DNA of 64,000 nucleotides from an uncultured Muribaculaceae bacterium (lineage in GTDB: Bacteria > Bacillota_I > Bacilli_A > RF39 > UBA660), in assembly GCA_964369155.1 (NCBI GenBank), contig CAYJEI010000001.1:607-64606 (forward strand), written 5' to 3'. Within the stretch, counting starts at the first letter, position 1; every line of letters begins with the position of its first letter. A program made the position numbers and the translations under genes. Below are positions 6,693 to 46,834 of this stretch, in pieces. Below the pieces are notes generated by a model. The model was not told the origin of the DNA. It did not search any database and saw nothing but the letters and a program-made list of their open reading frames with translations.

Positions 6693-6737
6693 GATTTTAG
6701 CAACACGAAAACCTCATTTCTGATAGGTCAAACGCGC

Positions 6738-8847: not shown

Positions 8848-8878
8848 TATGATACTTATCAAATGGATAAGTATCATA
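8848..8878. promoter_or_regulatory. Perfect 13-bp inverted repeat (TATGATACTTATC-aaatg-GATAAGTATCATA) followed by T-rich tract
   Basis: Read directly; terminator-like or operator-like. Confidence 0.4.
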
Positions 8879-9040
8879 TATTTTTAATCAGAGAAAATAA
8901 AGTTATTATTAATTTATAATTAGTTTTATAAATATATTAGATACAAAAACATAACTAAATTTATTTTATTTAGTTAGTATATCTTAAGGTTATATTGTAA
9001 TATTTTAGCTTGTTTTGTCGAAGTGCTTGAAAGGAAAATT

Positions 9041-19131: not shown

Positions 19132-20914
19132 AGGACCAGGAAGTGGTGCAGTAGTAACTGAAAAACCACAAAATTTTAAAATTGCAATATCAAAACTTGT
19201 TAAAAGTTTAGGAAAATATAAAGTTTCCTTAATTATTTCAATGGTTTTTGCACTAGGTGGTTCAATATTATCTATAATAGGTCCTAATCAAATTAGTAAA
19301 ATTACAGATACTATTGGAGAAGGTTTAATGACTAGTATAGATACTGATTATATAAAAGGTATAGCTATAATGTTGTTTTGTATATACGGAGGAAGTTTCT
19401 TACTTTCAACTATTCAAGGATTTATTGCATCGAGTGTAGCACAAAGATATTGTGAAGATTTAAGAAACAAAGTTGCTAATAAACTTAATAATATTCCACT
19501 AAAATTTTTTGATAAAAATAAAACAGGAGATATTTTATCAGTAGCGACAAATGATATTGACGTAATAAGTCAATCATTAAATCAAAGTTTAGGCTCACTG
19601 ATTTCATCTATTTTCCTGCTTATAGCAGTTATAATTATGATGTTTTCAACAAATGTTTTAATGACAATAACTGCAATTATTGCATCGTTCATAGGTTTTG
19701 GAGTAATGGGATTTATCTTATCAAAATCACAAAAATATTTTGATAGACAGCAAAAAGAATTAGGTGTTTTAAATGGACATATAGAAGAAATTTACTCTTC
19801 ACACTCCGTCGTTAAAGTATATAATGCTACAGATGAAGCCAAAGAAAATTTTGAAAAATATAATAATGATTTATTTGATTCGGCAATGAAAAGTCAATTT
19901 TTATCAGGACTTATGATGCCACTTATGAATTTTATAGGTAACTTTGGTTATGCTGCAGTTTGTGTTGTTGGAGCTTATTTAACATTCGAAGGGCATATTA
20001 CTATAGGTGTTATTATTGCATATATGATATATATAAGATTATTTACACAACCTTTATCTAATATTGCTCAAGCGGCATCTTCGCTACAATCTTTAACAGC
20101 AGCATTTGAAAGAGTGAATAAACTTCTAGCAGAAGAAGAACTATCAGATGAAAGTGACAAAAAAAATGTTTTAAATCCAGAAAAAATAAATGGAGATATA
20201 ACATTTAAAAATGTAATGTTTGGTTATAACAATGATAAAATAATAATTGATGATTTTTCATTAGATGTTAAACCAGGACAAAAAGTTGCTATTGTAGGTC
20301 CAACAGGAGCTGGTAAAACAACACTAGTTAATTTACTAATGAGATTTTATGAAATTAATAATGGTAGTATAGAAATCGATAATGTTGATATTCAAGATAT
20401 TACACGTGAAAATGTATATGATTTATTTTGTATGGTACTGCAAGATACTTGGCTTTTTGAAGGAACTATATTAGAAAATGTTAAATATAATCAAAATAAC
20501 GTAACAGATGAAGAAGCAAAAAAAGCTTGTAAAATGGTTGGTATTGATCATTTAATAAAATCACTACCAAATGGATATAATACTATTTTATCTGATGCTG
20601 ATAGTTTATCAGCAGGAGAAAAACAACTTTTAACAATTGCAAGAGGAATGTTAAAAAAATCACCATTTTTAATACTTGACGAAGCAACAAGTAATGTAGA
20701 TACAAGAACTGAAAAGTTGGTTCAAGAAGCAATGGATAAACTAACAGTAGGTAAAACTTCATTTATAATTGCTCATAGACTTTCTACAATAAAGAATGCT
20801 GATATTATATTAGTACTTAAAAATGGAAATATTTTAGAACAAGGAAATCATGAAAACTTACTTGCTAAAAATGGTTTTTATGCAGAACTTTACAATTCTC
20901 AGTTTGAAAATTAA
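19124..20914 (+). CDS. ABC exporter, fused permease/ATPase subunit 2
   Basis: Walker A GPTGAGKTT, signature LSAGEKQL; overlaps upstream gene. Confidence 0.9.
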   Translation: MSRGPGSGAVVTEKPQNFKIAISKLVKSLGKYKVSLIISMVFALGGSILSIIGPNQISKITDTIGEGLMTSIDTDYIKGIAIMLFCIYGGSFLLSTIQGFIASSVAQRYCEDLRNKVANKLNNIPLKFFDKNKTGDILSVATNDIDVISQSLNQSLGSLISSIFLLIAVIIMMFSTNVLMTITAIIASFIGFGVMGFILSKSQKYFDRQQKELGVLNGHIEEIYSSHSVVKVYNATDEAKENFEKYNNDLFDSAMKSQFLSGLMMPLMNFIGNFGYAAVCVVGAYLTFEGHITIGVIIAYMIYIRLFTQPLSNIAQAASSLQSLTAAFERVNKLLAEEELSDESDKKNVLNPEKINGDITFKNVMFGYNNDKIIIDDFSLDVKPGQKVAIVGPTGAGKTTLVNLLMRFYEINNGSIEIDNVDIQDITRENVYDLFCMVLQDTWLFEGTILENVKYNQNNVTDEEAKKACKMVGIDHLIKSLPNGYNTILSDADSLSAGEKQLLTIARGMLKKSPFLILDEATSNVDTRTEKLVQEAMDKLTVGKTSFIIAHRLSTIKNADIILVLKNGNILEQGNHENLLAKNGFYAELYNSQFEN

Positions 20915-20954
20915 ATAAATTATGATAAACTTAATATAAGGAGAGTGAATAAAT

Positions 20955-21686
20955 ATGTTTATAGGAGAAAATCCAATTCATATAAAATGTGAAAATAAAA
21001 GTGATATAGCTGAATTAGTAATTATGCCTGGAGATCCACTTAGAGCTAAATATGTAGCAGAAAACTTTTTAGAAAATGCCAAACAAGTAACAAGTGTTAG
21101 AAACATGTTAGGCTTTACAGGTATGTATAAAGGAAAAAAAGTAACAGTTATGGCACATGGTATGGGTATGGCTTCAGCAGGAATATATGTTTTTGAACTT
21201 ATACATTACTTTAATGTAAAAAAAATTATAAGATTTGGAACATGCGGTGTAGTTGATAGTTCAGTTGAAATACCAGAAATTATTTTAGCAGATAATTGTT
21301 ATACAGAGTCAAACTTTGCTTATCAATTTAATGGATATAAGGGATGCGAAGTAAAACCAAGTACTACATTAAACGAAAAAATAATAAAAAGTGCTAAAGA
21401 ACTTAATCAAAAAGTTCATGTAGGTACGATGATGACAATGGATGTCTTTGGTCCATATGTTGATTCGGACGCTGCTTTAGCAAGAATACCTGAGGGAATA
21501 AAACCACTTGGAGAAGAAATGGAAGCATTTGGTATAGTTCATATAGCAAACTCAATGGGAATTGAAGCAACAGCAATGGCAACAGCAGTAGATTCGAAGT
21601 TTAGTGAAATAGTACTATCAATTAATGAAAGAGAAAAATCACTAAATGATATGATAACTTTAGCGCTTGAATCAATTATAAAGTAG
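20955..21686 (+). CDS. deoD: Purine nucleoside phosphorylase DeoD-type
   Basis: PGDPLRAKYVAE motif. Confidence 0.85.
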   Translation: MFIGENPIHIKCENKSDIAELVIMPGDPLRAKYVAENFLENAKQVTSVRNMLGFTGMYKGKKVTVMAHGMGMASAGIYVFELIHYFNVKKIIRFGTCGVVDSSVEIPEIILADNCYTESNFAYQFNGYKGCEVKPSTTLNEKIIKSAKELNQKVHVGTMMTMDVFGPYVDSDAALARIPEGIKPLGEEMEAFGIVHIANSMGIEATAMATAVDSKFSEIVLSINEREKSLNDMITLALESIIK

Positions 21687-21693
21687 GTGTAAG

Positions 21694-22026
21694 ATGGCTA
21701 AGGAAGAAAAAAAAGAAGAAGCAAAAACAGAAGTGTTTGATGATATAATAAAATATAACAAACTAGGTTGGCTTAGAGTGTTAACAAATATAGTAGTATG
21801 GCTTGCATTAATATTTTTATCAATCACATCAATCATAGCATTTACAAATTTCACTTATATAAATGATCAAAAAGATCCATACTGGTACTTTGATAAAGAA
21901 GAATATACAAAAGATAATAAACAAATAACATCATACAACTACTTTGTTTTTAAAGTAGTTGAAGTTGAATCAACTGACGAGAGATCAGTTAATTTAACAT
22001 TTGTATTTATAAGTGATTCAAATTAA
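21694..22026 (+). CDS. Small membrane protein
   Basis: Acidic/K-rich N-term then one TM. Confidence 0.5.
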   Translation: MAKEEKKEEAKTEVFDDIIKYNKLGWLRVLTNIVVWLALIFLSITSIIAFTNFTYINDQKDPYWYFDKEEYTKDNKQITSYNYFVFKVVEVESTDERSVNLTFVFISDSN

Positions 22027-22054
22027 AAAAAAGATGAAAACAAAATCATCTTTT

Positions 22055-23410
22055 TTACTTGTTATAAGTTTTAATTATTTCTGAAAAATAACTATATAAT
22101 TTATCTTTATCAGACTCGGTATCTCCTTCAGCTCTAAATATCAAGTTAGGACCAGTATTACTTGCTCTTATAAGTACCCATCCTCTATCAAAAAATATTT
22201 TGACTCCATCAATATCTGAAAATTTAAAACCTTTTTTCCTAGCGTATTCTTTAATGTTTTCCACTACAATAAATTTATACTCGTCTCTGGCTTTTACCTT
22301 AATTTCATCAGTAATTGGGTATTTTTTAATATCACTTGTTATTTGGGATAAAGTACCTTCAGTTTTACTTAATAATTCGCATAGTCTAAGAGAAGCGTAT
22401 ATACCACTACCTATATCGGCTACTTTGTCTCTAAAGAAAATATGCCCTGAAAATTCTCCTCCAAAAAGTATATTTTCTTTGTGTGCTTCATTTTGAGTGT
22501 AACTGGCACCAGTTCTAAACATATAAGGGATAGCTCCGAGTTTTAAAATTTCTTCTTCTAAAATTTTTGAACATTTTACATCATATAAAAATTTCTTGTT
22601 ATCAGCAGTAGGTGATATTGATCTTATCATTAAAATCATAAATTCTTCAATGGACATAATTTCACCATTTTCTTTTACAAAACCAGTTCTATCACCATCA
22701 CCATCATATGCAATACCAAAATCAGCATTATTTTTTTTAACAGCTTCTTGTAGCTGTGCTAAATTAGCTTTAACAGCAGGATCAGGATGATGATTAGGGA
22801 AATTTCCATCATTATCTCCGTTTATAATAACATAATCTATTTTAAAGCTATCGAATATTTTTTTTGCAACAACAGTAGTTGCACCATTTCCGCAGTCAAT
22901 AACTACTTTTCTTCGCCTGGGCCCAATATCAATTCCTTTTTTCATATAATCAATATATTTATCAACCATATTAGATTCTTCAAGTTGACCACTTCCTGTC
23001 AAAAATTGCCCAGCAAAAGTGAAATTTCTGAAATCTTCAATTTCTTTTCCAGCGGCATTTGAGGGACCTCCAAATGAAAATTTTAAACCATTATCATCTT
23101 TAGGATTATGACTTGCTGTTATCATTGCCCCAAATAATTGATTTAAATACCTTGCATAAAAATTCATCGGTGTAGTTGTAAGACCATAGTCAATTACATT
23201 ACATCCAGTTTCAATAACACCTTTAATAAAGTTTGTAGCTAAACTTTCACTAGATAACCTATTATCTCTAGATACTATACATTTTTTTTGTCCAAATTTA
23301 CTTTGAATATAAGAACCATAACTTTTTCCAAGTGTATAAAAAGTCTCCTCATTAAGTTCACTAGGATAAACACCTCTTATATCATATTCTCTAAATATTT
23401 TATTTTCCAT
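22055..23410 (-). CDS. Phosphomannomutase/phosphoglucomutase (alpha-D-phosphohexomutase)
   Basis: FREYDIRG start, TASHNP active-site loop. Confidence 0.85.
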   Translation of the reverse strand: MENKIFREYDIRGVYPSELNEETFYTLGKSYGSYIQSKFGQKKCIVSRDNRLSSESLATNFIKGVIETGCNVIDYGLTTTPMNFYARYLNQLFGAMITASHNPKDDNGLKFSFGGPSNAAGKEIEDFRNFTFAGQFLTGSGQLEESNMVDKYIDYMKKGIDIGPRRRKVVIDCGNGATTVVAKKIFDSFKIDYVIINGDNDGNFPNHHPDPAVKANLAQLQEAVKKNNADFGIAYDGDGDRTGFVKENGEIMSIEEFMILMIRSISPTADNKKFLYDVKCSKILEEEILKLGAIPYMFRTGASYTQNEAHKENILFGGEFSGHIFFRDKVADIGSGIYASLRLCELLSKTEGTLSQITSDIKKYPITDEIKVKARDEYKFIVVENIKEYARKKGFKFSDIDGVKIFFDRGWVLIRASNTGPNLIFRAEGDTESDKDKLYSYFSEIIKTYNK

Positions 23411-23504
23411 TTTTATCACCATAAAATAATTTTATCATAAATTAAATAATTTTGTAACAATCTCATAATCATTTACAATTATAAATGTAAATGGTATACT
23501 TTAG

Positions 23505-24284
23505 TTGGTGGTAATAATGAAAATAAAACAAAAAAAAGAATTAAGGAATTTAACTATCTATGTTGTTCTTAGATTTTTAGTTATTTTAACAGCGATTTTT
23601 CAATTTCTAGATAGAAACTATGAAAATGTATTTAGTTGTATTCTTGTGCTTTTTCTTTTTACACTTCCTACTTTCATAGAAAAAAGAATGAAAGTTGACT
23701 TGCCAAATATGCTTGAATCTACAATATACATATTTATTTTTAGTGCAATGATTTTAGGAGAAATAAGAAATTTTTATGGACTAATACCAATTTGGGATAC
23801 ATTGCTTCACACGCTTAACGGATTTATATTTGCTGGAGTAGGGTTTGCATTAGTAGATATTTTAAATAAAAATGACAAAACTAAAATTTATTTATCTCCT
23901 ATATACATGGTGATTGTTGCAATAAGTTTTTCAATTACGATAGGTACGGTCTGGGAATTTTTTGAATACGGAATGGACGTGCACACTGCAACAGACATGC
24001 AAAAAGACGATTTACATACAAGTATAAGTAGTGTTTATATTAATGAAGATGGTATGAATGTTCCGGTTATAATAAATGATATTGAAAAAACAGTAATTCA
24101 CTATGAAAATGGTAAAGAAGTAACTATCAATAACGGTTACTTAGATATTGGTCTTCAAGATACAATGAAAGATATGATTGTAAATGCCATCGGAGCTATT
24201 GTGTTTTCGATTTTTGGCTACTTTTACGTAATTAATAATGAGAAATATGAATTTGCTAAAAATTTTATTCCAAAAAAACTTTGA
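23505..24284 (+). CDS. Multi-pass membrane protein, unknown function
   Basis: 259 aa, about 6 TM. Confidence 0.5.
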   Translation: MVVIMKIKQKKELRNLTIYVVLRFLVILTAIFQFLDRNYENVFSCILVLFLFTLPTFIEKRMKVDLPNMLESTIYIFIFSAMILGEIRNFYGLIPIWDTLLHTLNGFIFAGVGFALVDILNKNDKTKIYLSPIYMVIVAISFSITIGTVWEFFEYGMDVHTATDMQKDDLHTSISSVYINEDGMNVPVIINDIEKTVIHYENGKEVTINNGYLDIGLQDTMKDMIVNAIGAIVFSIFGYFYVINNEKYEFAKNFIPKKL

Positions 24285-24412
24285 AAAGTGTAATATGATA
24301 CACTTTTTTTCTTTTAAAAAAATATAGTTATATGTTATAATATATTATATAAATGATTTGATATGTTACTAGAAATTAGAATATTAAATCTAGAAAGCTA
24401 TGGAGTTTAATT

Positions 24413-24931
24413 ATGAATTTATTCGCACCAGATATGTATCAGCAATCAGTATATAAAATTAATTACAATAAACTTAAAATTCAAGGTATAAAATGTCTGT
24501 TATTTGACCTTGATAATACACTTGTTTCATATAAAGAGCATGAGCCATCAAAAAAATTAAAAGAATTTATGGCTCTTTTATCAGAAGATTTTAAGGTAAT
24601 TATTATCTCCAATAATACTAAAGAAAGAGTTAGACCATTTAAAGAGGGATTAAATGTAGATGCAGCTCATTCTTCTAAAAAACCGCTTAAAACAAAATAT
24701 AAAAAAATTCTATCTTTATATAAATACAAAGCAAATGAAATAGCATGCATAGGTGATCAAATAATGACTGATATACTAGGAGCTAATCGTAATCAAATGC
24801 TATCAATTTTAGTTAATTCAGTAGGTAGTGAGGAACCAATAAATACAAAATTTAACAGATTTTGGGAACGTTTAGTGTTAAAATCACTAAATAAAAAAGG
24901 AATTTTATTTAAAGGTGAATACTATGAGTAA
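24413..24931 (+). CDS. yqeG: YqeG-family HAD phosphatase
   Basis: FDLDNTL motif, size 172 aa. Confidence 0.75.
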   Translation: MNLFAPDMYQQSVYKINYNKLKIQGIKCLLFDLDNTLVSYKEHEPSKKLKEFMALLSEDFKVIIISNNTKERVRPFKEGLNVDAAHSSKKPLKTKYKKILSLYKYKANEIACIGDQIMTDILGANRNQMLSILVNSVGSEEPINTKFNRFWERLVLKSLNKKGILFKGEYYE

Positions 24932-26639
24932 AATTGAGGTAATGAGTGATCATTTAGCAAATAAAATAGCTGCTGGAGAAGTAATAGAAAGAACTTTATC
25001 TGTAGTTAAAGAGCTCGTTGAAAATTCTCTAGATGCAAAAGCTCATACAATAAAGGTAAATTTACTTGATAGTGGACTAAAAAAAATCGAAGTTATTGAT
25101 GACGGTATAGGAATGGATGAAAAAGATGCACTATTATGTTTTGAAAGGCACGCAACTAGCAAGATAAAAAAAGATGAAGATTTATTTTTTATAGGTACAC
25201 TAGGTTTTAGAGGAGAAGCTCTTCCATCAATAGCGTCGGTATCAGAAGTAATACTTATTACTAGTCAAGGTAATGTAGGAACTAAAATTCATCTAAAAGG
25301 TGGTAAATTAATTTGTAAAGAGCAAAGTGATGCCAGAGTTGGAACAGCTATAACAGTATCTAACTTATTTTATAATACACCAGCAAGGCTTAAATTTTTA
25401 AAATCAGAGAGTAGTGAGCTGAGTAACACAACAATGCTTATTGAAAAGTTAGCATTATCACATCCAAATGTTTCTTTTACTCTTACAAATAATGAAAAAG
25501 TAATTATTAAAACAAGTGGAAGTAATAATTTACATAAAACAATACATGAAATATATGGAATGAATATATCAAGTAACATGTTATCAATACATATTTCAAA
25601 TGATGATTACATTGTATCTGGTTTTATATCAAAACCCAGCATTCAAAAAACAAATAGAAATGATATGACAACATTTGTTAATGAAAGATTAGTAAAAAAC
25701 ATTGATATAAATAGAGCAATAAACGAGGCATATTATACATATAAACCACATGACAGGTATCCAGTCGTTATTCTAAATATTGAAACTGACCCAACTCTTA
25801 TGGATGTAAATATCCATCCAACAAAACAGGATATTAAATTATCAAAAATGACAGATTTAACTGACATGATTTACAAAGGAATAAAAGATTTATTATATTC
25901 TAACATATTAGTGCCAACGGCAGAACTTAAAGAAGTAGCGCCAGAAGAAATTGTTGAGGAAAAGTATGAATCAAATATAATAATTACCCAAACAGCTCTA
26001 GATTTTAGTGTAGAAAGCAGTAACGAAGAGCATGTTGTTATAAATAAAGAACTTCAAAAGTTAATTTTATATCCAGTAGGGCTTGTACATGGAACATATA
26101 TTATTGCAGAAAATGAAAATGGTATGTATATAGTTGACCAACATGCCGCAGCAGAGCGAGTTAGATATGAGACATATATGGCAAATTTAAAAGAAAAAAA
26201 ATTTAATATAAAAGAAATGATGTTTCCTGTAACAATAGAATTTACTGCTAGTGATTATATGAAATTTCAAACTAAAGAAAAACATTTTATAGATTTAGGT
26301 TTTACATATGAGGAATTTGGTATTAATACAATATTAGTTAAGAGTCACCCAGATTATTTATTAGAAGGTTATGAAGAAGAATCAATAAGAAAAATAATTG
26401 ATTTGATTATAAATATAAATAAAGACTTTGACAGAGTCAAGTTTCAAGAAAAGGTTGCTATTACCCTTGCTTGTAAAATGAGCATAAAAGCAAACCATAA
26501 AAGCTCACACGCGGAAATGGAATTTTTTCTAAACGAGTTAGTTAAATGTGACAATCCATATAATTGTCCGCACGGAAGACCTGCTATTGTTACATATTCA
26601 GGATATGATTTAGAAAAAATGTTTAAAAGAGTAGTTTAA
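24927..26639 (+). CDS. mutL: DNA mismatch repair protein MutL
   Basis: LANKIAAGEVIER...ELVENSLDA GHKL ATPase motifs. Confidence 0.9.
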   Translation, partial: SKIEVMSDHLANKIAAGEVIERTLSVVKELVENSLDAKAHTIKVNLLDSGLKKIEVIDDGIGMDEKDALLCFERHATSKIKKDEDLFFIGTLGFRGEALPSIASVSEVILITSQGNVGTKIHLKGGKLICKEQSDARVGTAITVSNLFYNTPARLKFLKSESSELSNTTMLIEKLALSHPNVSFTLTNNEKVIIKTSGSNNLHKTIHEIYGMNISSNMLSIHISNDDYIVSGFISKPSIQKTNRNDMTTFVNERLVKNIDINRAINEAYYTYKPHDRYPVVILNIETDPTLMDVNIHPTKQDIKLSKMTDLTDMIYKGIKDLLYSNILVPTAELKEVAPEEIVEEKYESNIIITQTALDFSVESSNEEHVVINKELQKLILYPVGLVHGTYIIAENENGMYIVDQHAAAERVRYETYMANLKEKKFNIKEMMFPVTIEFTASDYMKFQTKEKHFIDLGFTYEEFGINTILVKSHPDYLLEGYEEESIRKIIDLIININKDFDRVKFQEKVAITLACKMSIKANHKSSHAEMEFFLNELVKCDNPYNCPHGRPAIVTYSGYDLEKMFKRVV

Positions 26640-26648
26640 AGGAGGAAT

Positions 26649-26861
26649 ATGAATATTTTAAAAATTGTTTTAGTAATAATTGTTGTATACGCATTACTTA
26701 GTATTTTGTGGCCAGTATTATTATTTCTACTAATAATAGGAATAATTTATATTATATTTAAAAAGAATAATGTTGTTAATATTAACATTACTAAAAATGA
26801 AAAAACAAAAAATAAAAAAGATGATGTAATGGAAGCATCATTTACTGAAAAGGAAAATTAA
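26649..26861 (+). CDS. Small membrane protein
   Basis: 70 aa, one TM. Confidence 0.4.
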   Translation: MNILKIVLVIIVVYALLSILWPVLLFLLIIGIIYIIFKKNNVVNINITKNEKTKNKKDDVMEASFTEKEN

Positions 26862-26862
26862 T

Positions 26863-27132
26863 ATGTTTTGTAACAAATGTGGAAGTGCCTTATCACAAAA
26901 TTCAATGATTTGCCCAAAATGTGGAACTCTTATAACTAAAGAACAGTCTAACATGTTTAAAGAAATGAGAAAAGAAGCAGAAAAGAAAGGCAAAATAGAA
27001 TACAATAGTTCCAAATTCGGAGTAAATAGAGATATAAATTATAGATCTGATGATAAAGGTAAATATATTATGTTATATATAATAATAGGACTTATATTTA
27101 TAGCATTACTGGTTATACTACTTATAGGGTAG
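26863..27132 (+). CDS. Zinc-ribbon protein with C-terminal TM
   Basis: CNKCG...CPKCG. Confidence 0.5.
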   Translation: MFCNKCGSALSQNSMICPKCGTLITKEQSNMFKEMRKEAEKKGKIEYNSSKFGVNRDINYRSDDKGKYIMLYIIIGLIFIALLVILLIG

Positions 27133-27142
27133 GTAATCAGTA

Positions 27143-27652
27143 ATGTTTTTAATTTGTTTAAAAATTTTTCTAGCAAGAATTGTAGATGTTTCGATAGGTA
27201 CTGCAAGAACTATTTTAATGGTTCGTGGTAAAAGAAAAATAACTGCAGTATTAGCATTTTTTGAAGTAATAATATGGTTTTATATAGCAAGAGAAGCATT
27301 AGATAGTGCCAGTAAAAGTATATTTATACCTATTTCTTATGCTGGAGGTTTTGCAGCAGGAACTTATATAGGAACATTTTTAACAAACAAATTTATAAAT
27401 GGTTATATAGGGGTGCAAGTAACAACTAAAATAGATAATGACAAACTAATTAATAAACTCAGAAGTGAAGGATATGGAGTATCAGTAGTAAATTTAAAAA
27501 AAGAAAAAAATAAAGTTAGGAAAGATATGCTATTTATAGAAATTAAAAAGAAAAGTTTAGACAATTTAGTAAAAATAGTAAAAAATGATGATAAAAAAGC
27601 CTTCATAGTAGTAAATGACCGTAAATATGTTCAAAACGGGATTGTTAAATAA
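27143..27652 (+). CDS. DUF2179/UPF0316-like membrane protein
   Basis: 169 aa, 2-3 TM + soluble C-domain. Confidence 0.5.
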   Translation: MFLICLKIFLARIVDVSIGTARTILMVRGKRKITAVLAFFEVIIWFYIAREALDSASKSIFIPISYAGGFAAGTYIGTFLTNKFINGYIGVQVTTKIDNDKLINKLRSEGYGVSVVNLKKEKNKVRKDMLFIEIKKKSLDNLVKIVKNDDKKAFIVVNDRKYVQNGIVK

Positions 27653-27691
27653 TACTATCTAATGTATAATTAAATATACATTGGAGGCATT

Positions 27692-28267
27692 ATGAAAGAT
27701 AAAGTATTTGAAAAGGAATTAAGCTATATAAAAAACGAAAAAATAAAAAAAGCAGCCATCCTTCTTCTTAACCTTTTACCAGATTATTTCTTTGAAATAC
27801 CAGCATCATCAACAGGAAAGTATCATCCGAGCTACGCACTTGGTGAAGCTGGTCTAGTAAGACACACAAAGGTAGTAGTAAGAATCGGTTATGAGCTCCT
27901 ATCAAATAATAGTATTAATGGAGCATATACTAGTGATGAAAAAGATCTACTTATGTTAGCAATGCTTCTTCATGATGGATTTAAATCTGGAATTACAAAA
28001 GAAAAATATACAAGAGTAGACCATCCACTTTTAGTAGCAAACTTTATAAATGATAACAAGGAAAAATTAGATTTATCTGATGAGTATATAAATCTTTTAA
28101 AAGATTCAATAGCATCACATATGGGAGAATGGAATACTGATTTTAAAGGAAATGAAGTCTTGCCTAAGCCAACAAGTAAATATCAAAGGTTTGTACATAT
28201 GTGTGACTATTTAGCAAGTAAAAAATTTATTGAAGTAAGTTTTGAGAATAACGATATATTAAATTAA
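27692..28267 (+). CDS. HD-domain phosphohydrolase
   Basis: H...HD motif (LLHDGFK). Confidence 0.7.
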   Translation: MKDKVFEKELSYIKNEKIKKAAILLLNLLPDYFFEIPASSTGKYHPSYALGEAGLVRHTKVVVRIGYELLSNNSINGAYTSDEKDLLMLAMLLHDGFKSGITKEKYTRVDHPLLVANFINDNKEKLDLSDEYINLLKDSIASHMGEWNTDFKGNEVLPKPTSKYQRFVHMCDYLASKKFIEVSFENNDILN

Positions 28268-28298
28268 ATACAGAAATAAAAATCTGTATTTTTTTATT
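28264..28298 (+). terminator. Rho-independent terminator
   Basis: ATACAGA-aataaaa-TCTGTAT + T7. Confidence 0.65.
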
Positions 28299-28362
28299 GG
28301 AAAATATAGAAAAGTTTTAATCAATATGATATACTGAATTTATAAAAATAGGAGAGAGTAAG

Positions 28363-30534
28363 ATGGAGCAAATAAAAAAAGTTAAAAAAAGAGTAATAGT
28401 TATGATAGTAAGTGTACTTGTACTGACTATAAGCGTAGGATACGCATTTATAGCAGGAGGAGTAGGACCAGCTGCTAATACAGATGTGGATATAGCAAGT
28501 GGGTCTACAACTAAACTTACATTTACAGAAGGAACACCTATAGGTTTAGAGTTAAATCAAACAACGCTTGCTGAAGGTGGTAGTGATGTAAGAGGAACTA
28601 CTACATCAAGTGCAACACTTACACTTGGTACTAATGTGACAAGCGCAACAGAGTATTATCAAGTTTATTTAAATATAGAAGCAAATAATTTTATTTATAC
28701 AACATCAGCAAAAACACCAGAGATATTACTTTCAGTAACTGATCCTGAAGGAAATGCTAAAAGTATAGAAGGTCTTCCAGAAGTATCTGCTGGAGTATAT
28801 GACATAACAGATTATAAAGGTCTTATAAAAATAGTAGAAGATTACGAAATTACAGGAAGCACTACAACAGTGCATGACTGGGAAGCAACAATAACATTTG
28901 TAAATTTAGACTCAAATCAAGCAGCTAATAGTGAAAAATCATTAGATGCAACTCTTATATTACAACAACCGAAAATGATGATACCAGATATAGGAATAGT
29001 AACTCCGGAAGGATGCACAGACTGTGGTCCAGGTGAAACAGTAGTAACTCCATCTACAGGAGATGTAGGGGAAAATGGTTCTACATATGATATATATACA
29101 GTAGGCTATGTAACTAATACATCAGCAACTGGAGTAACATACTCTATAGATATAAAAATACCAGGAATGGATTACTCTAAGCAAACTTTAGAACTAGTAA
29201 ATACAGCAGAAGTAATGGAACTTTTATTTGATTATGAAGAGTATATAGATTTTAAAGGTTCAGGAGTAATATCTAGTGGAAATACTGATGCAAGTGCAGT
29301 AGCAACAGCAAACGATCTTCATACATCATCAATGAAAGAAAGTAACTTAACTATAAATAGTGTAAAAGTAACATGTGGATCAGATAAATGTACAGCAGTA
29401 ATAACTGAAACATTTAGTAACTTATCAGGGTTAACAGCACACTCTACAACAACAAATAGTGGAGCAGCAATTAATGCAATATATAATGGAATAATGTTTA
29501 ATGTAATGTTAAGTGAAAAAACTGACCCATGTATAAATCCAACATCATCAAAAGATTTAATACTATGTCACAATGGAGGGCAAGCAGTAATAGAGGCAAA
29601 AGCAGAGCCTGATTTTACACAAGTAGCTGATACAAATGAAGGAATGTTTGCAGCAGAAGATGAATATGGAACAAGTTACTATTATAGAGGTGCTGTAGAC
29701 AATAACTGGGTGTTATTTAATGGAATATACTGGAGAATAGTAAGTATAGCAGGAGATGGCTCATTAAAACTACTTTATAGTGGCACTACAGCGCCGACAA
29801 GTTCAACAGCAACTGTTATGACTGGAAGTGGAACAGAGATAGGTACTAGCGCGTTTAATACAAGTATTAATGATAATGCGTATGTAGGATACATGTATAC
29901 TTTAAATCAAAGACAAGGATTAGGAACATCAAGTACAATAAAAGGAACTTTAGAAACCTGGTATACAACTAATATGAATGGAGTTGACTCACAAATAGCA
30001 GATAATATATTTTGTTATGATAGGAGTTTAGCTACAGCTGGATTTCAAAATTATAATTATGGCTCAACAAATGGAATTTATACAGGAACTGGAATAGGAA
30101 CAAGTGGTACATTATACGGAGTGACTGCAAGAATAACAGCATCAAGTAGTTCTTTTGGCCCAGGGGGAACAGGACCAGACTTAATGTGTCCTAGCAAAGA
30201 AGATGCGTATACAGTAGATGATACAACAAACGGAAATGGAGCTCTTTCTAAAAAAGTAGGGTTACTCACTGCCGATGAGGCAGTAATGGCAGGCCTTGCG
30301 TCTGGCATAAACATCTTTAGTAACTATTTGTACACAAATAGTAGGTACTGGTTGGGATCTCCTTTTGGGTTCTATTCTAGTTCTCATGCTCGTGTGTGGT
30401 ATGTGTATTCTTCTGGTCGTTTGAGCAACGATTATGTCAATTATGTTTGTGGTGTCCGCCCTACAGTTTATCTTTCATCTAATATCGTGTTAAGCGGAAC
30501 AGGTGAGTGGAACGACGTTTACAAAATAAATTAG
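28363..30534 (+). CDS. Secreted mosaic protein, paralog 3 (long form, extra about 190-aa insert)
   Basis: Signal ending ISVGYAF; N-domain type B shared with paralog 4; C-terminal module and 3' flank shared with paralog 2. Confidence 0.8.
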   Translation: MEQIKKVKKRVIVMIVSVLVLTISVGYAFIAGGVGPAANTDVDIASGSTTKLTFTEGTPIGLELNQTTLAEGGSDVRGTTTSSATLTLGTNVTSATEYYQVYLNIEANNFIYTTSAKTPEILLSVTDPEGNAKSIEGLPEVSAGVYDITDYKGLIKIVEDYEITGSTTTVHDWEATITFVNLDSNQAANSEKSLDATLILQQPKMMIPDIGIVTPEGCTDCGPGETVVTPSTGDVGENGSTYDIYTVGYVTNTSATGVTYSIDIKIPGMDYSKQTLELVNTAEVMELLFDYEEYIDFKGSGVISSGNTDASAVATANDLHTSSMKESNLTINSVKVTCGSDKCTAVITETFSNLSGLTAHSTTTNSGAAINAIYNGIMFNVMLSEKTDPCINPTSSKDLILCHNGGQAVIEAKAEPDFTQVADTNEGMFAAEDEYGTSYYYRGAVDNNWVLFNGIYWRIVSIAGDGSLKLLYSGTTAPTSSTATVMTGSGTEIGTSAFNTSINDNAYVGYMYTLNQRQGLGTSSTIKGTLETWYTTNMNGVDSQIADNIFCYDRSLATAGFQNYNYGSTNGIYTGTGIGTSGTLYGVTARITASSSSFGPGGTGPDLMCPSKEDAYTVDDTTNGNGALSKKVGLLTADEAVMAGLASGINIFSNYLYTNSRYWLGSPFGFYSSSHARVWYVYSSGRLSNDYVNYVCGVRPTVYLSSNIVLSGTGEWNDVYKIN

Positions 30535-30558
30535 GATTTTACCAGCACGAAAAGCCCA

Positions 30559-30584
30559 TTTCTGATAGGTCAAACGAGGGAGTC
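30559..30584 (+). terminator. Terminator-like hairpin GGTCAAACGA-gggag-TCGTTTGACC downstream of paralog 3
   Basis: 10-bp stem; 5' arm also present after paralog 2 where the IS follows. Confidence 0.5.
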
Positions 30585-30766
30585 GTTTGACCGTAATTTA
30601 GTTGTGGGGAATATCAAAAAATAGAGAAAGTCTGATTTATATCCGCCGAAAGGCGGAAAATATTTGACACAAAATATACATATTGGATATTTTGTGTCTT
30701 TTTGTAATTACGCATTATTTGCTTATCGTAAATTTGGTATAATATAATTGTATACAAGTTATACTG

Positions 30767-30912
30767 GGTTTTGTTACTTAGGGATCTCCTTTGGGTTCAA
30801 TTTTAATAATATTAATATATGGAAAGTGAATTCTTTTGGTAATTTGAAGAACAATAATGTCACTAATACTAATGGAATGCGTCTTGCAGAGCTTCCTTTC
30901 ATAATTTTAAAA
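30767..30912 (+). pseudogene. Frameshifted AT-rich fragment homologous to the C-terminal about 45 codons of the secreted-protein family
   Basis: Translates (with one frameshift) to LYW / YLGISFGFNFNNINIWKVNSFGNLKNNNVTNTNGMRLAELPFIILK*, which aligns to YWLGSPFGF...VWYVYSSGRL..GVRPTVYLSSNIVL; preceded by TTGCTT...TGgTATAAT promoter-like sequence. Confidence 0.55.
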
Positions 30913-31009
30913 TAAATCCATAAAATGATGTAAACTTTATAATAAACGAAGAATAAATTGTGATCATAGTAGTTTAAGATGTATAAATATATCTATAGTT
31001 ATGATATAT

Positions 31010-31265
31010 AATAAAGTGATGAGAAAACAAACAAAATTCATGGTCTATGTGCCTAGAATTAGGATAAGAGAAGAAATAGTGTATTAGTAGTACAGTGTGA
31101 AAAGTAAGTTGTTTTTATTCTCCACTACAGGAGATATTATGCAAAAATTTAGGTTACTCGAAAAAACTAGGAAAACAATTTCTAGTTAATAAATATGTTG
31201 CTTTGAATATATCTAAAATTTATTCAGTATATAGAAACGAATTAATTAAATCGATGTTTATTTTG
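31010..31265. repeat. About 250-bp noncoding repeat, copy B
   Basis: About 88% identical to 8225-8480. Confidence 0.8.
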
Positions 31266-31358
31266 TCTTAAGAACTTTTTTAAAAAGGTTAGATATAAGA
31301 AAGTTGTATAATTATAATAATTAGTAGAAAAAAAAGTTTCGTCAGTTTTTCTATTTAT

Positions 31359-31386
31359 TTGACTTGTAAATATATTGTGCTATAAT
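31359..31386 (+). promoter_or_regulatory. Near-consensus promoter TTGACT-N16-TATAAT for glmS leader
   Basis: Read directly. Confidence 0.6.
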
Positions 31387-31399
31387 TAAATTAGTTACA

Positions 31400-31570
31400 A
31401 TTCTAGTGCGGAGGATATAGAAAGTAATTAGCGCAGGGATTAAGGTATCTTAATTGACGAGGTGTATAGTTATCGATTTATCAGCGGATGCTATACCGGC
31501 CAAAAGTGGTCGTTAAATATATGACAAAAAATAAAATTTAAGATTATAACAAAGCATATATTAAGAAAGG
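31400..31570 (+). ncRNA. glmS ribozyme: glmS ribozyme (GlcN6P-responsive self-cleaving riboswitch)
   Basis: A|GCGCAGGG cleavage-site core (A31430/G31431), P1 AUUAAG..CUUAAU, GACGAGG, P2 GUGUAUAG-UUAUCGAUUUAUCAGCGGAUGC-UAUAC matching the B. subtilis glmS leader; immediately 5' of glmS. Confidence 0.85.
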
Positions 31571-31583
31571 AAATAATTTTTAT

Positions 31584-33380
31584 ATGTGTGGAATCATAGG
31601 TTACATTGGTAATAAAAATGTTACTGATGTTTTAATTAAAGGGCTTAAAGCCTTAGAATATAGAGGATATGACTCTAGTGGAATAGCTGTTTTAAACAAA
31701 GATGTTGAAGTTTTTAAAGCAGTTGGCAAAGTTGTAAATTTAGAAGAAAAAATAAAAGAAAATAAAGATTCTTTTAAATTAGGTATTGCTCATACAAGAT
31801 GGGCTACTCATGGAGGAGTAACAGAAGATAATTGTCATCCTCATAAATCTGGTGATATAACACTTGTTCATAATGGTATAATTGAAAATTACTCAGAACT
31901 AAGAGAAGATTTAATTAAAAAAGGATATGATTTTAAATCAGAAACAGATACAGAAGTTGCAGCTGCTTTAATAGATTCTTTAGTAAAGGAACATAGTTTA
32001 CTAAAAGGTATTGAAGAAGCTAAAAAATTAATGAGAGGTAGTTTTGCTCTTTTAATTATTTATAAAAATGAAGAAAAACTGTATTGTGTTCGTAAAAATA
32101 GTCCTCTTATTGTAGGGGTATCAGCAGAAGAAAATTTTGTGGCATCAGATATTAGTGCAATACTTCCGTATACAAATAAATATATGGAAATAACTGAAAG
32201 TGATATATTTGAAATTACGAAAGATAAAATTGTAGTATATGAAAATTTAAAAGAAATAAAAAAAGAAGTATTACAAGAAAATATGACTGTTGAAAGTGCT
32301 CAAAAAAATGGATATGATTATTTTATGTTAAAAGAAATTAATGAGCAAAAAGAGTTAGGTAAAAAAATAGCGTTAAAATATTTTCCAAACGGAGAATTTT
32401 CTGATGAAATTATTGATTTAAGTAAATATGAATATATAGATATTGTGGCATGTGGTTCTGCTTATTACGCAGGAGCAGTTGGTAAATATTTTTTAGATAA
32501 ATATGGAAAAAATCTAATTATTAATATAGATGTAGCTAGTGAGTATAGATATAAAACACATCATTTCAGAAAAAATACATTAGTAGTTGTTATGAGTCAA
32601 TCAGGAGAAACTGCTGATACAATAGCAGCAATGAGAATGGCTCATGAAAATGGAGTAGATACACTTGCTATAGTAAATAATACTTTATCTACAATTAGCA
32701 AAGAGTGTAAATATGTTATACCAATGATAGCTGGTCCAGAAATTGCAGTAGCTACTTCAAAAGGGTATTTTACACAAGTAATAATTTTTAATTTACTTAT
32801 TTTAAAATATATGGAATCAACAGGAATTAAATCAAAAGATGAAGTAAAAGAAATTATAAATGAAATAGCTAATTTAGAAAATAGATTAAATAAATTAATA
32901 AATGATATAGATTATAAAAATATAGCAAAAGAACTTATTGAAAAAGATCATATATATTTCATAGGTAGAGGTATAGATTATATTGTATCATTAGAAGGAA
33001 GTTTAAAATTAAAAGAAATAAGTTATATTCATAGTGACGTATATCAAGCAGGAGAACTTAAACATGGATCAATAGCCCTTATTGATAAAGAAACTCCAAT
33101 AGTAGCTTTAATTACAGATGAAATGTTAGCAGAAAAAACTGTAAGTAACATCATAGAAGCTAAAGCAAGAGGTGCTTTAGTATATACATTTAAAACAGAT
33201 AATATAAATACTCCGATTAATATGAGTGATCATGAAATAATCTATAAAAATGCGCCAGAGTTAATTAATCCTTTAATATCAATCGTGCCAATGCAGCTAC
33301 TTTCTTATTGTGTAGCACTATTAAAAGGCTGTGATATTGATAAACCAAAAAATTTAGCAAAATCAGTAACAGTTGAGTAA
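31584..33380 (+). CDS. glmS: Glutamine--fructose-6-phosphate aminotransferase
   Basis: MCGIIGY N-terminal nucleophile, two SIS domains, 598 aa. Confidence 0.95.
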   Translation: MCGIIGYIGNKNVTDVLIKGLKALEYRGYDSSGIAVLNKDVEVFKAVGKVVNLEEKIKENKDSFKLGIAHTRWATHGGVTEDNCHPHKSGDITLVHNGIIENYSELREDLIKKGYDFKSETDTEVAAALIDSLVKEHSLLKGIEEAKKLMRGSFALLIIYKNEEKLYCVRKNSPLIVGVSAEENFVASDISAILPYTNKYMEITESDIFEITKDKIVVYENLKEIKKEVLQENMTVESAQKNGYDYFMLKEINEQKELGKKIALKYFPNGEFSDEIIDLSKYEYIDIVACGSAYYAGAVGKYFLDKYGKNLIINIDVASEYRYKTHHFRKNTLVVVMSQSGETADTIAAMRMAHENGVDTLAIVNNTLSTISKECKYVIPMIAGPEIAVATSKGYFTQVIIFNLLILKYMESTGIKSKDEVKEIINEIANLENRLNKLINDIDYKNIAKELIEKDHIYFIGRGIDYIVSLEGSLKLKEISYIHSDVYQAGELKHGSIALIDKETPIVALITDEMLAEKTVSNIIEAKARGALVYTFKTDNINTPINMSDHEIIYKNAPELINPLISIVPMQLLSYCVALLKGCDIDKPKNLAKSVTVE

Positions 33381-33481
33381 AAAATATGTCTTATATAAAG
33401 TAAACTATAGAAAAAGTACATTTTAGTGCTTTTTTTGTTTTAAAAAATATGATATTATGATTATGATAGTGAGGTATATTT

Positions 33482-36513: not shown

Positions 36514-36519
36514 ATAGTC

Positions 36520-36712
36520 AGCAAGCAAAGAAGTTTGAGGAGTAAAATATTATTTATTTTTAGAGAGTTAGTGTGAGGTGAAAACTAACAATAAATATAT
36601 TTGAAGGTTGCAAACGGAGTTTGAACGGTTAGAACCGATATATTCTAGATAAGTTAAAATTAAGGTGGTACCGCGTATAATACGCCCTTTGGTATTACCT
36701 TTTTATTTTGGG
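36520..36712 (+). promoter_or_regulatory. T-box riboswitch leader of valS
   Basis: AGAGA box, conserved T-box AATTAAGGTGGTACCGCG (36657-36675), overlapping terminator GGTGGTACC...GGTATTACC + T-run. Confidence 0.8.
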
Positions 36713-43932: not shown

Positions 43933-46101
43933 ATGATAAAGAAAAATAAAGGGAAAATATTAATGGTTTTAGGAGTATTACTTGTTCTAACTTTTGGTAT
44001 AACATATGCATTTTTTGCAGGAGGAAGAGGTCCATCAGCAAGTAGTGATATAGAAACAGGAACAGGAATTACTACTAAATTATTATTTACAGAAGGTACA
44101 CCTATAAACTTAGAATTAAATGAAGATACTCTTTTAGTAGGTGGAAGTGATGTAAGTGGAACTACTACATCAAGCGCAACACTTACACTTGGAACAAATG
44201 TAACAAGTGCAACAGAGTATTATCAAGTTTATTTAAATGTAGAATCAAATAATTTTATTTATACAACAGCAACAAAAACACCAGAGATACTACTTTCAGT
44301 AACAGATCCTGAAGGAAATGCTAAAAGTATAGAAGGTCTTCCAGAAGTATCTGCTGGAGTATATGACATAACAGATTATAAAGGTCTTATAAAAATAGTA
44401 GAAGATTACGAAATCACAGGAAGCACTACAACCGTGCATGACTGGGAAGCAACAATAACATTTGTAAATTTAGATTCAAATCAATCTGCAAATGAAGGAA
44501 AAAATCTTGATGCAACTCTTATATTACAACAACCAAAAATGATGATACCAGATATAGGAATAGTAACTCCAGAAGGATGCACAGACTGTGGTCCAGGTGA
44601 AACAGTAGTAACTCCATCTACAGGAGATGTAGGGGAAAATGGTTCTACATATGATATATATACAGTAGGCTATGTAACTAATACATCAGCAACTGGAGTA
44701 ACATACTCTATAGATATAAAAATACCAGGAATGGATTACTCTAAGCAAACTTTAGAACTAGTAAATACAGCAGAAGTAATGGAACTTTTATTTGATTATG
44801 AAGAGTATATAGATTTTAAAGGTTCAGGAGTAATATCTAGTGGAAATACTGATGCAAGTGCAGTAGCAACAGCAAACGATCTTCATACATCATCAATGAA
44901 AGAAAGTAACTTAACTATAAATAGTGTAAAAGTAACATGTGGATCAGATAAATGTACAGCAGTAATAACTGAAACATTTAGTAACTTATCAGGGTTAACA
45001 GCACACTCTACAACAACAAATAGTGGAACCGCAATAAACGCCATATATAATGGAATAATGTTTAATGTAATGATAAGTGAAAAAACTGACCCATGTATAA
45101 ATCCAACAACATCAAAAGATTTAATTTTATGCCACAATGGGGGGCAAGAAGCAATAGAGGCAAAAGCCGAGCCTAATTTTACACGTGTTGCAGATACAAA
45201 CGAAGGAATGTTTGCAACAACAGATACATATGGAACAGCGTACTACTTCAGAGGAGCAGTAGATAATAATTGGTTATATTATAATGGAATATACTGGAGA
45301 ATAGTAAATATAGCAGGAGATGAATCGCTTAAACTACTTTATAGTGGTACTACGGCGCCGACAAGTTCAACAGCAACTGTTATGACTGGAAGTGGAACAC
45401 AGATAGGAGATAACACATTTAATACAACAACAACAGATAATGCATATGTAGGGTACATGTATACTTTAAATCAAAGGCAAGGACTAGGAACATCAAGTAC
45501 AATAAAAGGAACTTTAGAAAACTGGTATACAACATATATGAATGGAGTTGACTCACAAATAGTAGATAATATATTTTGTTATGATAGGAGTTTAGCTACA
45601 GCTGGATATCAAAGTTCTCATTTTGGTTCAGCAAATGGAAGTTATACAGGAACAGGACTAGGAACAAGTGCTACATTATATGGAACAGCAGCAAGAATAA
45701 CCGCATCAAGTAGTAGTAAGGCAGCAGGTGGAACAGGACCAGACTTAATGTGTCCTAGCAAAGAAGATGCATATACAGTAGATGATACAACAAATGGTAA
45801 TGGAGCTCTTTCTAAAAAAGTAGGGTTACTCACTGCCGATGAGGCAGTAATGGCAGGCCTTGCGTTTGAGGAAAACGCCAGTAGTAACTATTTGAACACA
45901 GATAGTTACTACTGGTTGGGCTCTCCTTTTGGGTACGCTTCTCCTTTTATTAGTGCTTATATGTGGTATGTGTATTCTTCTGGTATTCTGAACAACAATT
46001 ATGTCAATAATACTCTTGGTGTCCGCCCTGTAGTTTATCTTTCATCTAATAATAAAATAACTGGAACAGGAACTTGGGATGATTATTATGTAGTACAATA
46101 A
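43933..46101 (+). CDS. Secreted mosaic protein, paralog 4 (long form)
   Basis: Signal ending FGITYAF; 456-bp tract 44572-45027 identical to paralog 3; AT-rich variant C-terminal end (..GTGTWDDYYVVQ). Confidence 0.8.
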   Translation: MIKKNKGKILMVLGVLLVLTFGITYAFFAGGRGPSASSDIETGTGITTKLLFTEGTPINLELNEDTLLVGGSDVSGTTTSSATLTLGTNVTSATEYYQVYLNVESNNFIYTTATKTPEILLSVTDPEGNAKSIEGLPEVSAGVYDITDYKGLIKIVEDYEITGSTTTVHDWEATITFVNLDSNQSANEGKNLDATLILQQPKMMIPDIGIVTPEGCTDCGPGETVVTPSTGDVGENGSTYDIYTVGYVTNTSATGVTYSIDIKIPGMDYSKQTLELVNTAEVMELLFDYEEYIDFKGSGVISSGNTDASAVATANDLHTSSMKESNLTINSVKVTCGSDKCTAVITETFSNLSGLTAHSTTTNSGTAINAIYNGIMFNVMISEKTDPCINPTTSKDLILCHNGGQEAIEAKAEPNFTRVADTNEGMFATTDTYGTAYYFRGAVDNNWLYYNGIYWRIVNIAGDESLKLLYSGTTAPTSSTATVMTGSGTQIGDNTFNTTTTDNAYVGYMYTLNQRQGLGTSSTIKGTLENWYTTYMNGVDSQIVDNIFCYDRSLATAGYQSSHFGSANGSYTGTGLGTSATLYGTAARITASSSSKAAGGTGPDLMCPSKEDAYTVDDTTNGNGALSKKVGLLTADEAVMAGLAFEENASSNYLNTDSYYWLGSPFGYASPFISAYMWYVYSSGILNNNYVNNTLGVRPVVYLSSNNKITGTGTWDDYYVVQ

Positions 46102-46192
46102 AATAATTAAATAAAATTCATAGATTATTAATTTATGGATTTTTTAATTGAAAAAAATGTCATATTTTGTTATTATTATAATAGGTGATAAA

Positions 46193-46834
46193 GTGGCAAG
46201 TTTGATTTTTAAATATAGTGCAATGAATGCAGGTAAAACTATTAGTATTTTGCAAACAGCTCATAGTTATGATGAAAAAAATTTGAAATACATTATTATG
46301 AAATCTGTTAAAGATACTAAGGGAGATGATACAATTGTATCAAGAGTAGGTGGAGAAAATAAAAAGGTAGACATCTTACTAGGAGAAAATGAATCTTTAC
46401 TTACTGAAAAAAATTATAAAAAGTATTATACAGCAAGGGTTATACTTGTTGATGAAGTAGAGCTTTTAAATGAAAAACAAATTGAAGAACTATGGACAAT
46501 AGCTCATTTAATAAAAATACCAGTAATTACATATGGACTTAAAAGTAATTTTTCTGGAGAAATATTTTCAGCAGGAATCGCCAAACTTGTAGCATTTGCT
46601 GATGAACTTGAAGAAATTGGTTCGACTAGTTTGTGTATTTGTGGTGCTAAAGCTACATTTAATGCAAGAAAGCATAATGATAAATATACTGATAAGGGAG
46701 AAATAGTCGTAATAGATGGCTCTGATGAAGAAGTCGAGTACATTCCATTATGTGGAGATTGTTATTTAAAACATGTTAAATTAAAATCAGCATGTGTTAA
46801 AAAGTTATCAGATTTAGTTGAAAAAATAAGTTAG
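46193..46834 (+). CDS. tdk: Thymidine kinase
   Basis: P-loop MNAGKT, C-terminal CICGAKA...CGDCY zinc ribbon; GTG start after TATAAT/AGGTGA. Confidence 0.8.
   Translation: MASLIFKYSAMNAGKTISILQTAHSYDEKNLKYIIMKSVKDTKGDDTIVSRVGGENKKVDILLGENESLLTEKNYKKYYTARVILVDEVELLNEKQIEELWTIAHLIKIPVITYGLKSNFSGEIFSAGIAKLVAFADELEEIGSTSLCICGAKATFNARKHNDKYTDKGEIVVIDGSDEEVEYIPLCGDCYLKHVKLKSACVKKLSDLVEKIS

Follow-up and report, generated by a model that had tools for sequence, protein, structure and literature searches.

The window analysed here, a stretch of 64,000 nt with low overall GC (~27%), carries four paralogous surface-protein genes on its plus strand: B (2366-3970), C (5076-6692), D (28363-30534; 723 aa, taken from the ORF list) and E (43933-46101). 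Common to all four is a C-terminal module of ~340 aa, with 70-79% identity among them and Pfam DUF6273 at its end (E=1.9e-5 in D). Behind D, which an earlier sequence-only reading of this DNA counted as paralog 3, lies a short fragment that resembles the end of these same genes. What kind of element this fragment is, and what it has to do with the genes whose ends it resembles, are the questions we address.

Homology to the C-terminal end of the family extends over window 30745-30912 and involves all four paralogs. An open frame at 30748-30915, which begins about 210-230 nt past the stop codon of D, translates to LYTSYTGFCYLGISFGFNFNNINIWKVNSFGNLKNNNVTNTNGMRLAELPFIILK and then a stop, and this translation matches the last ~60 residues of B, C, D and E, where the family segment reads YLYTN..YWLGSPFGF...VWYVYSSG.L.N..V....GVRP. 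By tblastn the fragment is 46.7% identical to B over 45 aa (E=3.6e-5); by blastn it is 72.6% identical to E over 117 nt (E=3e-11) and 70.5% identical to B. When the shuffle test named in the sequence-only reading was run, the best of six frames scored 86 by Smith-Waterman, compared with 33.5 +/- 4.0 and a maximum of 48 for 1000 dinucleotide shuffles (z ~13), which leaves the claimed homology standing; of 640 real 168-nt tiles taken elsewhere in the window, none scored above 51. The family HMM places the fragment at positions 274-312 of 335 (15.6 bits, i-E=0.01), and the similarity to the C-terminal segment of the DUF6273-ending family is collinear as well as significant. A Pfam search with the 55-aa ORF of the fragment gave no match. 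Homology starts near 30745 (TTGTATACAAGT against TTGTATACAAAT, at the LYTN codons), slightly upstream of where the fragment had first been taken to begin. The frameshift reported earlier is real in the DNA, and is accounted for by an insertion of ~10 nt relative to the genes after TACTGG (TACTGG-GTTTTGTTAC-TTAGGG) together with a +1 and a -1 indel that compensate each other within GGGATCTCC-TTTGGGTTC.

The differences between fragment and genes fall preferentially at adenines of the fragment. We tested this over the core of the alignment (30779-30887), setting the fragment against the four equivalent gene segments in a multiple alignment; these segments lie on the plus strand at 30353-30464 in D (residues 664-701, located by alignment and column mapping), 3786-3897 in B, 6505-6622 in C and 45917-46031 in E. 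Mismatches occurred in 91 of 144 comparisons at fragment adenines (63%) as against 58 of 292 at other bases (20%; Fisher p=8e-19). The genes also differ from one another in the same places: 27 of the 36 columns in which the fragment has A are variable among the four segments, compared with 13 of the 73 columns in which it has another base (p=9e-9). Because this among-paralog test is independent of decay in the fragment, it adds its own support to the same answer, and neither adenine bias is present in the 5' and 3' flanks of the core. Fragment and paralogs thus differ as the template repeat (TR) and variable regions (VRs) of a diversity-generating retroelement (DGR) do, chiefly at TR adenines. 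The placement of these adenines is likewise that of a DGR, in which they occupy codon positions 1 and 2 in AAY codons: positions 1, 2 and 3 hold 19, 13 and 4 of them (32 of 36 at the first two), and AAT is the commonest codon of the fragment (10 of 55). From these features and the evidence given below we read window 30745-30912 (plus strand), at a probability of roughly 85%, as the decayed TR of a DGR whose targets are the C-terminal DUF6273 VRs of this surface-protein family. Past adenine-directed hypermutation, now frozen, explains the strong divergence of the last ~40 residues in the four paralogs.

Related genomes contain the same arrangement, in part with its machinery intact. A scan of contigs with D alone found no relatives; an alignment-based profile scan, with one genome per species, then succeeded and gave 80 loci with family members, all of them in uncultured gut Bacilli or 'Mycoplasma sp. 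CAG:472'-like MAGs, some labelled Muribaculaceae. Scanning these loci in six frames with the family HMM, we found orphan pieces 200-800 nt 3' of full-length genes in three other genomes, at profile positions 267-313 (locus L001), 269-314 (L063) and 274-311 (L067), which answers the question whether the fragment recurs beside paralogs elsewhere. The orphan pieces are markedly Asn-rich (e.g. FNSDNSNANEFNVNSSGNIDNNNVNNNNGARP), and in L063 and L067 they lie by family genes beside reverse TRANSCRIPTASES. The order in L063 (CAKOIF010000013) is target, a 114-aa bAvd-like ORF (PF22296, E=6e-8, under the Pfam cutoff of 40 bits), TR and a 441-aa RVT_1 protein with a YMDD motif (E=4e-14), and in L067 (CALVPR010000032) it is target, TR, an Avd-like ORF without a Pfam match, named by its size, position and likeness to Avd sequences, and a 367-aa RVT_1 protein (E=8e-12). 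TR and VR of the same locus differ at 23 of 39 adenines in L063 and at 22 of 33 in L067, with one non-A site each and no gaps. Judged by their sequence, these two cassettes are textbook DGRs, the orphan pieces being their TRs and the gene ends their VRs. As a side observation, L067 carries between TR and avd (5033-5820) a 122-aa ORF with a match to MutS domain I (PF01624, E=1e-7) and a 104-aa ORF on the minus strand.

Remnants of avd and of the reverse transcriptase (RT) gene are present in the window as well. Behind the TR a frameshifted and truncated 5' piece of avd lies at 31140-31283 (plus strand; tblastn to the L067 Avd, LVNKYVALNISKIYSVYRNELIKSMFILS), of which only the first ~45 codons remain before the glmS promoter (31359-31386) and ribozyme (31419-31572). 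It is part of a direct repeat of ~270 nt (31014-31283 and 8238-8507, 23 kb apart and 85-87% identical by blastn) that consists of a non-coding element and the avd 5' end, with the short ORF MQKFRLLEKTRK... The second copy belongs to a dead DGR cassette behind paralog C (8238-8901, plus strand), made up of a post-TR element (8238-8363), an avd pseudogene (8364-8703) and an RT remnant (8690-8901). Two frameshifts interrupt the avd pseudogene, which has 40% identity to the L067 Avd (E=4e-16). Searched against 5.8 billion proteins, this contig's own included, reconstructed Avd retrieved only bAvd-type (PF22296) proteins: five matches at 39-44% identity (E=1.7e-15), none of the five from an NCBI assembly. 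The RT remnant, ~70 frameshifted codons for an N-terminus that reads MKRKNYLFSH... and then ...YQMDKYHIFLIRENK, is collinear with RT residues 1-71, though weak when taken alone (two collinear tblastn pieces of 32-40% identity). With the L063 and L067 RTs as tblastn queries, no RT was found at the D locus and only the C-locus remnant in the window, so that the RT gene that stands next to the TR in a DGR is missing here. Sequence homologous to Avd, the accessory variability determinant and a four-helix bundle (bAvd, PF22296), occurs in both cassettes and is disrupted in both. The cassettes behind C and D are paralogous and their decay is complementary: at the C locus an IS4-like element stands in place of TR and hairpins.

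This IS4-like element (6735-8237; DDE transposase 6891-8075, minus strand, DDE_Tnp_1 E=3.6e-6) is inserted right after C, within the equivalent of the first hairpin described below. A decayed copy, 74% identical, follows paralog B (3883-4869; ORF 4120-4599, minus strand), and since an IS copy follows both genes, the tandem duplication of B and C took in the IS; a search for inverted repeats fixed no IS termini. At the place expected for the body of the C-locus RT gene there is a PD-(D/E)XK nuclease-family transposase-like gene (9023-9952, plus strand; PF12784, E=1e-18), which may have displaced the RT.

These neighbours bear on the possibility that the fragment is an ordinary pseudogene, either a tandem paralog that lost its 5' part and kept only its tail, or a tail left behind by illegitimate recombination, with A+T decay thereafter. 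Tandem paralogs and IS rearrangements do occur in the window, as B and C with their IS copies show, and the fragment is AT-rich and has indels. AT-biased decay does not explain, however, why the paralogs vary at the columns of fragment adenines (27/36 as against 13/73), and a pseudogene accounts neither for the avd remnant after the fragment nor for the same profile segment, with A-only mismatches, beside intact RT and Avd in L063 and L067. We regard this explanation as very unlikely. The sequence-only reading had also offered that recombination left the fragment behind from the 3' end of an ancestral gene; this finds no support, and the adenine-specific mismatches, the Asn codons, the avd remnant downstream and the repeats beside intact RT and Avd speak against it. 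What ties the locus to the DGRs is the TR/VR signature, together with the codon positions of the TR adenines, the remnants of avd and RT, and homology to intact cassettes.

Three hairpins separate the stop codon of D from the TR, all in RNA of the plus strand. Hairpin 1 (30568-30592; 10-bp stem GGTCAAACGA/TCGTTTGACC), found by RNA folding 34 nt past the stop codon, is stronger than the other two (MFE of the fold -63.9 kcal/mol, z = -6.5). It is a candidate for the target-side hairpin or for part of the terminator region; a hairpin of other sequence stands at its place in the sister genome. TR/VR homology stops at GCGTC(T/C)TGCAG (TR position 30887), and hairpin 1 with its 10-bp stem lies ~100 nt beyond the VR, past the stop codon; these features are candidates, on sequence alone, for IMH/IMH* and the target-side hairpin. 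Hairpin 2 (30642-30657, TCCGCC-GAAA-GGCGGA) is kept in sequence at the sister-genome locus. Hairpin 3, a 12-bp stem at 30666-30698 that was found by RNA folding and is followed by a T-run (to 30705), is likely, together with that run, the intrinsic terminator of gene D, and its L001 equivalent differs in sequence. Hairpins 2 and 3 are the two strong hairpins noticed earlier between gene and fragment; both exist, but their true sites (30642-30657 and 30666-30698) lie about 9-10 nt upstream of the positions then given. A simple terminator scan listed no hairpin, because the stems are AT-rich with few G-C pairs or have no directly adjacent T-run. RNAalifold set hairpin 1 out of register when applied to the window and L001 as a pair, and we relied on folding the two regions separately.

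Directly upstream of the TR an extended -10 box, TGgTATAAT, can be read at 30735-30743 (plus strand), and L001 and L067 have TG-N-TA-rich boxes at the corresponding place ahead of their TRs. Of the promoter proposed earlier, TTGCTT-N13-TGgTATAAT, the extended -10 is credible but the -35 box is not, as a 13-nt spacer is too short, and the positions needed correction (TTGCTT is at 30719-30724); a promoter consensus scan did not list the site. The extended -10 is a candidate promoter for the former TR-avd-RT transcript, and the earlier description of the fragment as promoter-proximal fits a promoter with that role. On the other side of the TR a non-coding element (30913-31139, plus strand) extends to the avd remnant, its part at 31014-31139 being repeated at 8238-8363. 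L001 has kept this element, and the intact DGRs L063 and L067 have kept parts of it behind their TRs, the motifs GAGGAAAYAA..TCCWTGG..CCTAAA..TTAGTAGT being common to it and to these two cassettes; in the DGR RNA it would probably form the structured 3' part. A metagenome scan for the conserved post-TR motif AGTGYGAAAAGTAAGTTGTTTT gave no match. Rfam, applied to the whole window and permissively to 30500-31450, recognised no known RNA family over the TR or the post-TR element, its only matches being the glmS ribozyme, a T-box, a tRNA and a single chance match to a snoRNA.

While the cassette was intact, the promoter upstream of the TR would have driven a TR-avd-RT transcript, a complex of RT and Avd would have copied the TR RNA to cDNA with misincorporation opposite adenines, and this cDNA would have taken the place of the VR in the 3' end of the target, with its AAY (Asn) codons recoded. 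Adenine-directed rewriting of this kind would have left the signature visible in all four paralogs. The steps are established DGR biology, which we infer for this locus. The earlier suggestion of a donor segment for C-terminal variation is essentially right, in that a TR is the donor for a C-terminal VR, but the mechanism is other than a silent cassette implies: the transfer would be retrohoming, that is, reverse transcription with adenine errors, and not cassette recombination.

Recombination would be the mechanism if the C-terminus underwent antigenic variation by gene conversion, with the fragment as its silent donor cassette; the fragment might also simply be translated as a 55-aa ORF. The family is indeed a multigene family of surface proteins, and the fragment is promoter-proximal with an open frame. 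Silent cassettes of the pilS/vls/MgPar type, however, come as multiple promoterless, partial copies whose blocks of high identity recombine into an expression site, which is not what we find: the 64 kb contain a single fragment, its ~70% identity with indels leaves no long identical flanks for gene conversion, and recombination does not produce base-specific mismatches at A. As to translation, the TTG start lies 5 nt past TATAAT with no Shine-Dalgarno sequence, and the open frame differs in L001. Both versions strike us as extremely improbable. Of the label 'relic or silent cassette' in the sequence-only reading, the second half falls with silent-cassette recombination, and the first holds only in the sense that the fragment is the relic of a DGR.

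How far the TR of this DGR has decayed can be judged from its non-adenine positions. Aligned pairwise, it shows 7-10 non-A mismatches and 4-10 gap columns against each VR; in the multiple alignment the figures are 13-16 and 12. An active pair has almost only A-to-N differences and equal length, a pattern that the intact controls display (1 non-A, 0 gaps) and from which the TR/VR pair of the window is far removed. In a published survey the maximum was 11 non-A differences in any one target (PMC5758913). At nine non-A columns the four VRs agree with one another against the TR. The L001 TR goes with the VRs in six of the nine, the change being mostly C-to-T in the window TR; it is thus the window TR that has changed. 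No recent rewriting of any of the four VRs from this TR can have occurred. With avd cut after ~45 codons and frameshifted, no RT in the window and a drifted TR, the DGR looks locally dead, and it is correctly labelled a degenerate (fossil) DGR; systems of this kind are known, and no new mechanism is involved.

DGR components can work in trans and on remote targets (PMC5758913), and the TR could accordingly still be functional, serviced by RT and Avd encoded elsewhere and acting on a paralog outside the window. Its frame is open over 55 codons in DNA of ~27% GC, and extended -10, TR and post-TR element have been kept, in the sister genome too without an adjacent RT. Against this, each of the four VRs in the window departs from the TR at non-A sites (10-14% non-A mismatch plus indels), the window TR has undergone lineage-specific C-to-T changes while its 10-nt insertion is common to L001, both local avd copies are frameshifted, and the search of 5.8 billion proteins with Avd yielded only the five matches mentioned, at 39-44% identity and with none in an NCBI assembly. 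Service in trans, the chief doubt that is left, appears improbable to us. A related idea starts from L001, a locus of the same relative as L082 (below), where a paralog, three hairpins, TR and post-TR element stand upstream of cysS; this module aligns to window 30535-31127, has the same 10-nt TR insertion and lacks avd and RT. The module of target, hairpins, promoter, TR and post-TR element may then persist and relocate without RT (upstream of glmS here, of cysS in the sister genome), either as a semi-autonomous unit that an RT and Avd encoded elsewhere still service in trans, or with its expressed TR RNA co-opted to another end. If true, this would amount to a distributed DGR with several orphan TR modules; we hold it to be decidedly improbable.

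The closest relative, GCA_964370755.1, has a GlmS 84% identical to that of the window, and its locus L082 is collinear with the window on both sides of D and its cassette: L082 1-7788 matches window 20499-28313 and L082 7768-9801 matches 31354-33384. A block of ~3.06 kb comprising D, the hairpins, the TR and the truncated avd (28292-31374) is absent from the syntenic L082 site (7768-7788), where the terminator of the HD-domain gene abuts the glmS promoter. The 3-kb block may have been inserted here or deleted there; further GlmS relatives are not syntenic upstream of glmS. In the window ~21 nt of the glmS promoter region are duplicated at both borders of the block. The extended sister contig encodes a homolog of the D and E N-terminal part (468 aa) that is not of the DUF6273 family and has no DGR behind it.

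Phage DGRs are documented that target DUF6273, described as C-lectin-like, and place the VR where this domain ends C-terminally (PMC10743442, PMC11792537). An AlphaFold model of the C-terminal 340 aa of D (window 29512-30534; pLDDT 92) gives C-type lectins, whose variability-tolerant ligand-binding fold is of the type that holds the VR at its C-terminal end in DGRs, only at non-significant E-values. The sole significant PDB match of the model is the IgA peptidase of Thomasclavelia ramosa (9qa6; E=8.5e-6), with TM-scores of only 0.37 and 0.17 and an rmsd of 9.9; the N-terminal domain of 9qa6 is annotated as DUF6273. This match, low TM-scores included, hints that the D family might bind host proteins. 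Exact look-ups of protein D and of P0001 returned no record.

Several features of the family are worth recording beside this. As a pair, paralogs D and E form a mosaic. They agree at 93-100% over residues ~120-360 and at 52% in the N-terminal signal region, and far greater divergence marks the last ~120 residues, with 62% and 25% identity in the final two 60-residue blocks. The mosaic suggests recent gene conversion confined to the N-terminal body. C and D have the C-terminal module alone in common. Where the paralogs have their conserved C-terminal modules (3001-4000, 6001-7000, 29001-31000 and 44001-46000), G+C rises to 0.33-0.39, as against ~0.22-0.30 in most other parts of the window. A distant relative of the family, recognised by HMM pieces 31-87 and 264-333, is a 437-aa ORF (46853-48166, plus strand) after the thymidine kinase gene (46148-46834); it has no Pfam match and no TR nearby.

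Among known systems, the DGR of Bordetella phage BPP-1 is like the present one in having its VR at the 3' end of a ligand-binding target, a nearby non-coding and AAY-rich TR, adenine-specific TR/VR differences, a bAvd-type gene and a conserved non-coding stretch next to the TR. Its order is mtd VR, avd, TR and brt, whereas here we take the order to have been target, TR, avd and RT, as in L067. The target here, moreover, is a cellular DUF6273 surface protein of low-GC gut Bacilli rather than a phage tail fibre, and the cassette is degenerate, with avd a pseudogene, RT missing and a TR with 7-16 non-A differences plus indels. The DGRs of Faecalibacterium prophages and of the 'tentaclin' phages likewise have the VR at the C-terminal end of DUF6273 (PMC11792537, PMC10743442); they are phage-borne, intact and presumed active, whereas here the cassettes are dead, the paralog family has four members and the setting is chromosomal: the D locus is flanked by an HD-domain gene and glmS, and no phage genes were seen. 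L063 and L067 have a homologous target family, a TR at the same profile positions, an Avd about 31-40% identical over the aligned parts and post-TR motifs in common with the window; unlike the window they encode a full-length RT (441 and 367 aa) together with Avd, their TR and VR show one non-A difference and no gaps, and in L063 avd precedes the TR. The multi-target DGRs of Treponema denticola and Legionella (PMC5758913) also mark several scattered paralogous targets by one type of TR, but their remote VRs match the TR at all non-A positions and none does so here.

Our literature searches on RF39 DGRs and on degenerate or inactive TRs found no specific report. The DUF6273-ending family of uncultured low-GC gut Bacilli ('Mycoplasma sp. 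CAG:472' relatives) emerges as a family of cellular DGR targets; among its relatives some cassettes are intact and others decaying, and these form a natural series in which to follow how DGRs die and how diversified paralogs become fixed. They also call for caution in annotation, as orphan TRs without RT escape DGR finders that are anchored on the RT and resemble pseudogene scraps; the fragment behind D is now a recognisable element instead of an odd piece of a gene.

The closest relatives of the window are filed as 'uncultured Muribaculaceae bacterium', a label that looks wrong: their gene content, ~27% GC and kin labelled 'uncultured Bacilli', 'Mycoplasma sp. CAG:472' and 'Tenericutes' point to a low-GC Bacilli lineage. 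The glmS ribozyme and T-box leaders are known mainly from Firmicutes. In the window a near-consensus promoter (TTGACT-16-TGCTATAAT, 31359-31386) and a glmS ribozyme (68 bits) precede glmS, and a T-box leader (94 bits) at 36519-36692 precedes the valyl-tRNA synthetase gene.
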